Shown here in pieces: positions 13,190 to 13,528 of a DNA stretch of 64,000 nucleotides. Where the stretch lies: positions 6,631 to 70,630 of the IMG/VR virus record IMGVR_UViG_3300034084_000080; one strand, 5' to 3'. Source of the DNA: a virus (Duplodnaviria > Caudoviricetes). Numbering within the stretch: position 1 is the stretch's first letter; each line of letters starts with the position of its first letter. Under the pieces are notes generated by a model, which was not told where the DNA came from, did no database searches, and saw only the letters and a program-made list of their open reading frames with translations. The position numbers and the translations under genes were made by a program.

Positions 13190-13393
13190 TTAATCATCGC
13201 TTAAATGTGTTAAAAACTCATTAATCTGACCGAAAATGAATAAATCATCTTTACGATCGTTTATTTCCTGCCCACAAAATTCATCAGAGCATAAATACCC
13301 CTGAAATACTTTGTTAAGAAATTTGATGATTGGTTGAGTGGTTCCGAACTGATCTTTTAGTTCTTGGGATGGTGTTTTTTTCTGTGTTCGCAT
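13190..13393 (-). CDS. Small protein downstream of RNA switch 2 (paralog of 8932-9138)
   Basis: VFQGYLCSDEFCGQEINDR aligns with IFLGYITTDDYCSLNQNDR. Confidence 0.75.
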   Translation of the reverse strand: MRTQKKTPSQELKDQFGTTQPIIKFLNKVFQGYLCSDEFCGQEINDRKDDLFIFGQINEFLTHLSDD

Positions 13394-13528
13394 TTTGAAA
13401 AGTTTTTAAAATGCCCATGTCGCTGCGAACACAGTCGGAGAACCGAAAGAGTGCCGGACTTTCACCGGATCGCATGGGCTTTATTATTAAGAAATTGTTT
13501 TTAGTGGATCTCTCCAACTATGTTCGCA
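13382..13528 (-). ncRNA. Structured antisense-switch leader 2
   Basis: Outer stem 13473-13479/13413-13419; hairpin CCGG-TGAAAGT-CCGG at 13454-13468; segment 13424-13444 complementary to 13506-13528 and to the start-codon region 13382-13392. Confidence 0.75.

Follow-up and report, generated by a model that had tools for sequence, protein, structure and literature searches.

Mutually exclusive pairings set access to the start site in the rpoS leader with DsrA, in the fold-back inhibition of IS10 and hok, and in lambda cIII. SymR is transcribed from the strand opposite symE, and the c4 RNA of P1 and P7 acts through two short loops against the ribosome-binding region. According to one account, c4 belongs to the immI operon (c4-icd-ant), in which the antisense is co-transcribed with its target and blocks the next small gene (PMC8198154). 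For the P4 immunity leader, a second account places an antisense, CI (seqB), in the leader of the early operon, with a complementary seqA upstream and seqC downstream (PMC4825925). The locus described here, Switch 2, comes from an uncultured Bacteroidota prophage and is the leader, about 150 bases long, of a small early gene; the IMG/VR record of the window (the whole 64-kb stretch of DNA that was analysed) is that of a provirus. It resembles P4 CI (Rfam C4, RF01695) in that a prophage carries an antisense within a small structured leader RNA, with complementary sites on both sides in the same transcript. We propose, from sequence comparison, that the leader is probably a bistable cis-acting two-state RNA that regulates translation of the first gene of the early block and possibly also termination.

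The leader extends over 13540-13375 on the minus strand, preceding the ORF at 13190..13393(-) and overlapping its start, and is composed as follows.

13533..13540, minus strand: -7-like promoter box, degenerate, GATATTAG, directly 5′ of the 5′ arm and aligned with the box of relatives
13518..13528, minus strand: 5′ decoy arm, UGCGAACAUAG, a near-copy of the start region that differs by one C-to-U change
13511..13517, minus strand: arm extension UUGGAGA, which either partners 13441-13435 (P3 loop and 3′ strand) or serves as the 5′ strand of P0
13503..13518, minus strand: P0 hairpin capped by a GNRA tetraloop (GAGA), with 4 good pairs in Switch 2
13480..13502, minus strand: A/U-rich linker between P0 and the core
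13413..13479, minus strand: scaffold core, closed by P1 and enclosing P2, P3 and the address
13454..13468, minus strand: P2 hairpin CCGG-UGAAAGU-CCGG, with a 7-nt loop
13435..13446, minus strand: P3 hairpin UCGG-UUCU-CCGA, 4 pairs
13424..13434, minus strand: address, CUGUGUUCGCA, an antisense 11-mer between P3 and the 3′ strand of P1
13394..13412, minus strand: spacer, U-rich then A-rich, with AUUUU immediately 3′ of P1
13393-13391, minus strand: start codon ATG of the 67-aa ORF
13382..13392, minus strand: clamp target, UGCGAACACAG, made up of UG from the start codon and the 9 coding bases after it

The strands of P1 are GCCCAUG-CG (13479-13471) and CG-A-CAUGGGC (13422-13413) on the minus strand, and an A-run (13381-13375) comes right after the clamp target. 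An inverted repeat, GCAUUUUGAAAA and UUUUUAAAAUGC on the plus strand (window 13390-13414), can form a weak local hairpin that involves the AUG (GCAUUUU with AAAAUGC); since the U-tail after P1 pairs weakly with the AUG in this way, the start codon of Switch 2 would still be partly paired in the predicted decoy state.

The address has two partners. The earlier note had described 13424-13434 as the exact reverse complement of 13382-13392, and a repeat search finds these arms complementary at 11/11 positions. It had also proposed that the region of the address, its site B, pairs with the 5′ region over about 18 bp including two G-U; the repeat search returns 13424-13441 and 13511-13528 (18 nt, 89%), and both mismatches read as G-U on the minus-strand RNA. 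Within this longer pairing the decoy arm itself (13518..13528(-)) contributes 10 Watson-Crick pairs and one G-U with the address. RNAduplex predicts 19 bp and -31.4 kcal/mol for the arm/inner pairing and 11 bp and -18.7 kcal/mol for the address/start pairing. The arrangement of repeats is beyond chance: allowing up to one mismatch, the address word of Switch 2 occurs four times in the 64 kb, three of these being the cognate sites, where 0.5 occurrences are expected by chance and four were reached in 0 of 100 shuffles. The whole leader also folds better than shuffles, with z = -3.5.

Pairs and compensatory changes were counted in an alignment (A4) of 30 full three-part members of the family to which the leader belongs, with the following result for each helix.

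Clamp (address with start), 11 pairs: 99% of cells paired, 8 pairs with compensatory change
Decoy (arm with address, plus extension), 17 pairs: 91% of cells paired, 13 pairs with compensatory change
P0, 6 pairs: 86% of cells paired, 5 pairs with compensatory change
P1, 9 pairs: 98% of cells paired, 7 pairs with compensatory change
P2, 4 pairs: 97% of cells paired, 3 pairs with compensatory change
P3, 4 pairs: 86% of cells paired, 3 pairs with compensatory change

First, the covariation score was matched by none of 500 partner shuffles for both structures tested, and pairing falls to 26-44% when the partners are slid by 1-3 columns. Second, compensatory changes are abundant in both helices that involve site B, in agreement with the two alternative pairings that had been claimed for it; the clamp helix is almost purely Watson-Crick, and the decoy helix is longer and contains wobbles. 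Third, one pair of the arm extension, 21:116, shows 9 double changes, the remaining extension pairs being mostly invariant; column 116 covaries with its P3 partner and with its arm-extension partner, and column 21 covaries with its P0 partner and with column 116. This dual covariation is the expectation for two mutually exclusive folds, and the three-way covariation makes an unusually clean case that a single RNA has two functional structures, each excluding the other.

The loops of P0 across the family are GCAA, GAAA, GAGA or GUAA (i.e. GNRA), and the P2 loop, UGNAAGU, is conserved and looks T-loop-like (U-N-N-A-A). The GNRA loops, together with mismatches that are G-U on the sense strand, argue for RNA and not for duplex DNA or DNA of the antisense strand. 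Inverted and direct repeats of 11-18 bp beside a promoter in a mobile element, with homing endonuclease genes nearby, could otherwise be taken for an element acting at the DNA level, such as invertible promoter repeats, a recombination site, a target-site duplication, or a single-stranded DNA promoter of the transferred strand, but we regard this as highly improbable. All of the helix mismatches would be A-C on the other strand, the loops are of types that characterize RNA, the target is always anchored on AUG, and a single orientation is seen in three independent assemblies, which speaks against an inverton. Furthermore, conservation runs upstream past the 5′ repeat into the promoter, so that the repeats bound no insertion, and a target-site duplication of an insertion was rejected for this reason.

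Two ORFs span the leaders, 13314-13517(-) (67 codons) and 9144-9404(-) (86 codons), and because the region evolves as RNA these are most likely not genes. A leader peptide was likewise considered and rejected: the frames that start in the arm end after 3-22 codons and are unconserved, and a variable loop base falls at what would be a second codon position.

Switch 2 has a paralogue in the window.

9127..9285, minus strand: Switch 1, the paralogous leader, with address CUCGUUCUGCA, ahead of the 68-aa ORF 8932-9138(-)

The two were previously noted to have the same architecture with different addresses, and this is borne out by 80% identity between them, with arm, address and start region differing together (in Switch 1 these are UGCAGAAUGAG, CUCGUUCUGCA and UGCAGAACGAG, respectively) and with compensatory changes in P1, P2 and P3. 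Beyond Switch 2, the conserved scaffold words recur in the window only at 9285-9127(-), and the core covariance model, which scores both copies at about 89-90 bits, detects no third copy in the 64-kb window. The 67-aa product of ORF 13190..13393(-) is a paralogue of that of the 68-aa ORF 8932-9138(-), with 24% identity (E = 2e-9), and the RNA is far better conserved than the two proteins (80% vs 24% identity). Switch 2 is a sound second, orthogonal member of its family.

The family, which we refer to as start-codon clamp leaders, is defined here from the scaffold pattern and the core covariance model (R1). R1 scores Switch 2, which was in the seed alignment, at 89.8 bits (E = 6.5e-21, 13407-13483(-)), and members outside the seed at 35-78 bits. 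There are 15 matches to the scaffold pattern in 185,579 species genomes, 12 of them in Bacteroidota (Pedobacter, Chryseobacterium, and Epilithonimonas) and the remaining three being high-GC chance matches. Among 151 genomes each of Sphingobacteriaceae and Weeksellaceae, R1 matches occur in 20 and 9, respectively, and there are none, under strict filters, in 150 other Bacteroidota genomes sampled. First scans of IMG/VR with the P2 motif alone gave almost exclusively high-GC chance matches, contig L017 being the only real one; the phage contigs L017 and L025, both outside the seed, match R1 with E ~1e-7, and on these the leader lies within an insertion between the terminase and portal genes, ahead of repeat-rich proteins with no Pfam matches. 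Two close metagenomic relatives, identified by way of the small proteins, have these leaders too, with changes that are informative (GCUCAGG/CCUGAGC in P1, A, U or C as loop base, and an arm difference that is G-U compatible).

Searches of reference collections gave no counterpart. There was no blastn match of the leader to GenBank phages or PLSDB plasmids, and no relevant Rfam 15 family at the gathering score in the window and 14 loci, a single tRNA being all that was reported for the whole window. At E up to 1-10, the leader region and 20 related loci again gave no relevant family of Rfam 15, whether C4, Pedo-repair (RF01715), radC (RF01754), STAXI (RF01728) or any other, and a cmscan of 13100-13800 at E up to 10 gave no match to C4 (RF01695). 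No description of the leader family was found in the literature.

Switch 2 contains the P1/P2/P3 scaffold core with the UGNAAGU loop and GCAGCGAC, an arm complementary to the address 45 nt from the core (41-49 nt in the family), and 11/11 address:start pairs 14 nt after the core (10-20 nt in the family). Of 44 units examined, 33 have a downstream site that begins exactly at the U of the ATG, 10-20 nt after the core, and is complementary to the address at 10 or 11 of its 11 positions; in about 37, an arm 41-49 nt ahead of the core forms at least 9 of the 11 pairs. The triad is retained in divergent Weeksellaceae members, though P0, P3, the linker, and most other sequence have changed. The address appears to have undergone at least 21 rewritings, decoy and target changing to match, which would make the leader a portable scaffold with a programmable address. 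The arm:address helix is kept in five members that have no start-codon site (L055, L058, L060, L062 and L017), showing that this helix and the scaffold have some role beyond the clamp, and that the clamp cannot be the sole function of the family. In L055, L058, L060 and L062 the ORF contains, roughly 30-45 nt from its start, a sequence that partly matches the constant segment of the address (UGCGAA...), in a G-A/I-A-N-P coding motif.

The genes behind the leader are unrelated across relatives, and include those for RadC-like JAB proteins, SymE-family toxins, an S24-like protein, and many unknowns. The proteins nonetheless all begin M-R/Q-x-x-K, encoded by the target and the A-run, and the sharing of this beginning by unrelated proteins indicates a constraint at the RNA level. 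There are often 2-4 units per element, each with its own promoter. In two tandem arrays the short ORF behind one unit stays open and in frame through the next leader into the next ATG (L033:4671-5411(-) and L030:5735-6187(-), of 246 and 150 codons), which may reflect chance or translational coupling. Elsewhere a leader-RadC unit has a tRNA gene (L052:2256-2328(-)) about 700 nt away, which would be expected close to the end of a tRNA-integrated element.

This variety of genes bears on whether the leader might be a riboswitch or protein-responsive leader, in which the scaffold (the GCGAU junction, the UGNAAGU loop, GCAGCGAC, and the GNRA-capped P0) would bind a small molecule or a host or element protein, stabilizing the compact core and thus freeing or occupying the address. 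The three-part sequestor and anti-sequestor logic is typical of riboswitch expression platforms, and there are invariant unpaired nucleotides in the junctions and loops while the helices covary. We nonetheless consider this unlikely, as so small a core is involved, the genes associated with it are a heterogeneous set from mobile elements and form no metabolic regulon, no known riboswitch class in Rfam matches, and no conserved partner gene is seen; nothing specific points to a scaffold that responds to a ligand or protein. Likeness to a tRNA, RNase P or a cobalamin riboswitch, prompted by GGUGAAAGUCC and a 7-bp P1, was rejected, there being no model match and the order of the arms being wrong.

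The surroundings of Switch 2 contain the following features.

13873..13894, minus strand: terminator-like hairpin and T-run, ending the upstream minus-strand unit
13190..13393, minus strand: 67-aa ORF directly behind Switch 2
12757-13140: DUF6876 gene (Pfam)
11722-11673, minus strand: candidate hammerhead at a gene junction, with a core (CUGAUGA, stem II, GAAA, stem III, GUC) recognized by eye
10768-11166: PcfK gene (Pfam)
9477-10763: PcfJ gene (Pfam)

The TAnnTTTG-like box that the earlier note placed upstream corresponds to GATATTAG at 13540-13533(-), which aligns with the box of relatives but is degenerate, with TTAG for TTTG; the exact TAnnTTTG is absent from the minus strand between 13530 and 13600. 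In 30 relatives the -7 box is nTTTGnAG or CTTTATAG, at least 90% conserved, and it ends 3-5 nt before the 5′ arm, so that transcription likely starts at the arm or a few bases before it, close to where it had been placed (site A). The upstream unit ends at 13894-13873(-), and the plus-strand ORF 13599-13865 diverges from the 70-bp gap that it shares with the leader, so that Switch 2 needs a local promoter; the terminator and the divergent ORF also fit the suggestion that Switch 2 heads the central early block.

The order downstream is the 67-aa gene, DUF6876, small ORFs, the hammerhead-like sequence, PcfK, PcfJ, Switch 1, the 68-aa gene, and an HNH endonuclease gene. Pfam thus confirms the proteins that had been named in this block (DUF6876 and PcfK/PcfJ), whereas the hammerhead named with them is seen by eye and has no Rfam score, 11673-11722(-) going unreported at E up to 1. 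The 67-aa protein has no Pfam or PHROG match, and the ESM Atlas gave nothing usable; a homologue with 66% identity lies behind the same leader in L019. Free-standing genes of the homing-endonuclease type flank the early block at 8393-8932(-) and 15076-15612(+), with NUMOD4 and HNH domains and, by PHROG, GIY-YIG-like.

In the cis-acting switch that we favor, the transcript would begin at the 5′ arm or a few bases ahead of it, and the small scaffold, with P1 closing P2 and P3, would present the 11-nt antisense address. In the ON state the address would be held by the 5′ arm, leaving the start codon free and the gene translatable, and the helix could lengthen by 5-7 bp at the cost of P0 and P3. 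In the OFF state P0 and P3 would fold and the address would clamp the UG of the start codon and the 9 bases that follow (the first three codons), blocking initiation. Such a clamp would be especially effective in Bacteroidota, where what initiation depends on is a start region free of structure, and not a strong Shine-Dalgarno sequence. With its A-rich 5′ side and U-rich 3′ tail, P1 may double as a terminator, in which case the choice between the states could determine read-through as well.

The newly made leader would be ON by default, as suggested by simulated chain growth, in which the arm captures the address while the start region has yet to be made, and it would be switched OFF when the arm is lost or occupied; with the arm removed, the clamp is the predicted minimum-energy fold. 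By constrained folding of the 30 members the two states come out nearly equal in energy across the family, with a mean difference of -1.1 kcal/mol (sd 4.1; 11 of 30 within 1), under an energy model that ignores the pseudoknot by which P1 crosses both the decoy and the clamp helix. The predicted energies of Switch 1 are balanced (-38.9 vs -39.0 kcal/mol); the predicted equilibrium of Switch 2 is strongly biased toward the decoy (-41.7 vs -32.9 kcal/mol for the clamp), and a trigger would therefore be required to close its clamp. The balance might be shifted by processing of the 5′ end, by the time elapsed since synthesis, by a protein, or by free core RNA that acts in trans.

The last of these leads to a serious alternative, or addition, to the cis model, namely an immunity or incompatibility RNA of the P4 CI or P1 c4 type. 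The core would be released by termination at P1 and its U-tail, or by processing, and would act in trans, the address binding the 5′ arm and start region of transcripts with the same address and thereby shutting off resident and incoming early blocks; the cis pairings would serve folding and sensing, and the two modes could coexist. We view this reading as possible, though appreciably less probable than the cis switch. The order of upstream site, antisense, and downstream site is that of seqA-CI(seqB)-seqC as laid out in PMC4825925, and the element is a provirus. P1 is terminator-like in being a GC-rich stem between flanks that across the family are 64% A before and 62-65% T after (62% T in the first 9 nt), and a U-rich tail persists in divergent members. 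In Switch 2 it has 9 GC-rich bp followed by AUUUU; the stem closes a 55-nt branched loop, a consensus terminator scan does not call P1, and extension of P1 into the A/U flanks pairs no better than shuffled partners (3.1 vs 3.3 of 7).

Arrays of 3-4 tandem units lie upstream of a SymE-family toxin gene in three loci (L032:3860-4413(-), L037:842-1263(+) and L040:6661-7080(-)), each unit having its own promoter-like sequence, and a near-identical SymE-toxin array is found in Pedobacter and in a Chryseobacterium MAG. The first units of these arrays have no cis start-codon target and end in P1 and TTTTTT, and units of this kind, with neither a good arm nor a cis target, speak for action in trans. 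So does the diversity of addresses: 21 distinct addresses are present among the 30 members, and co-resident units always differ in address, by at least 3 of 11 positions in 7 of 7 loci or genomes, suggesting selection against cross-talk. Against this, no cognate target of an orphan unit was found above control in that unit's own genome, so that the orphans may be relics; the window has no extra target of either address at a gene start, each address having its own three sites only; and there is no match in sequence or structure to Rfam C4. A released core that kept its 5′ arm would be self-masked, and the family also heads non-phage genes (RadC and SymE) for which an immunity role is less obvious.

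A broader form of this idea, to which we give somewhat less credence still, is that the mobile elements of Bacteroidota have an RNA exclusion system programmable through its addresses. Here scaffolded 11-nt guides would silence, in trans, the first early gene of resident or incoming elements with the same address, some guides would be kept in tandem arrays as stand-alone units with promoter and terminator, and the 5′ decoy would be a sensor of free guide RNA. If so, the diversification of addresses (at least 21, and always distinct within a genome) would record an arms race or a grouping by incompatibility.

Returning to the cis switch, the leaders most likely constitute a widespread family, absent from Rfam, that heads phage and mobile-element genes and switches their translation on and off. 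If this is true, Bacteroidota phages and integrative elements share a portable cassette of promoter, decoy, scaffolded antisense, and first codons, which gates the first-expressed gene (often a toxin, RadC-type or unknown early protein) by pairing at the start codon. Such a cassette would bear on translation control in a phylum largely without Shine-Dalgarno-led initiation, would supply naturally occurring orthogonal riboregulators that have 21 addresses or more, and would be a candidate for RNA-based immunity or incompatibility outside the Proteobacteria.

The likeness to the seqA-CI(seqB)-seqC leader of P4 appears to be one of logic only. The phylum is different, the upstream site is at the extreme 5′ end, and the downstream site is the start codon, so that the output here is likely translation and not only termination. 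In contrast to the c4 RNA of P1 and P7, with which there is no homology, a single junction-held 11-mer pairs with the AUG. Leaders with a built-in anti-antisense (rpoS, IS10, hok, and lambda cIII) are each single-locus, whereas the present ones look to be a portable scaffold in which the address can be reprogrammed. Synthetic toehold switches and riboregulators are similar in that the start codon is sequestered and freed by strand displacement, and in having orthogonal variants; the leaders described here are natural, carry the strand that does the releasing in cis, at their 5′ end, and have a scaffold with GNRA and T-loop-like elements. SymR and SymE offer a further parallel, as the antisense covers a start codon and the leaders of relatives head SymE-family toxin genes, but here the antisense is on the same strand and upstream, and the downstream protein in the window is not SymE. 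What is new here is the scaffold, the anchoring on the start codon, the 5′-terminal decoy, the many rewritten addresses, the phylum, and the association with unrelated mobile-element genes.
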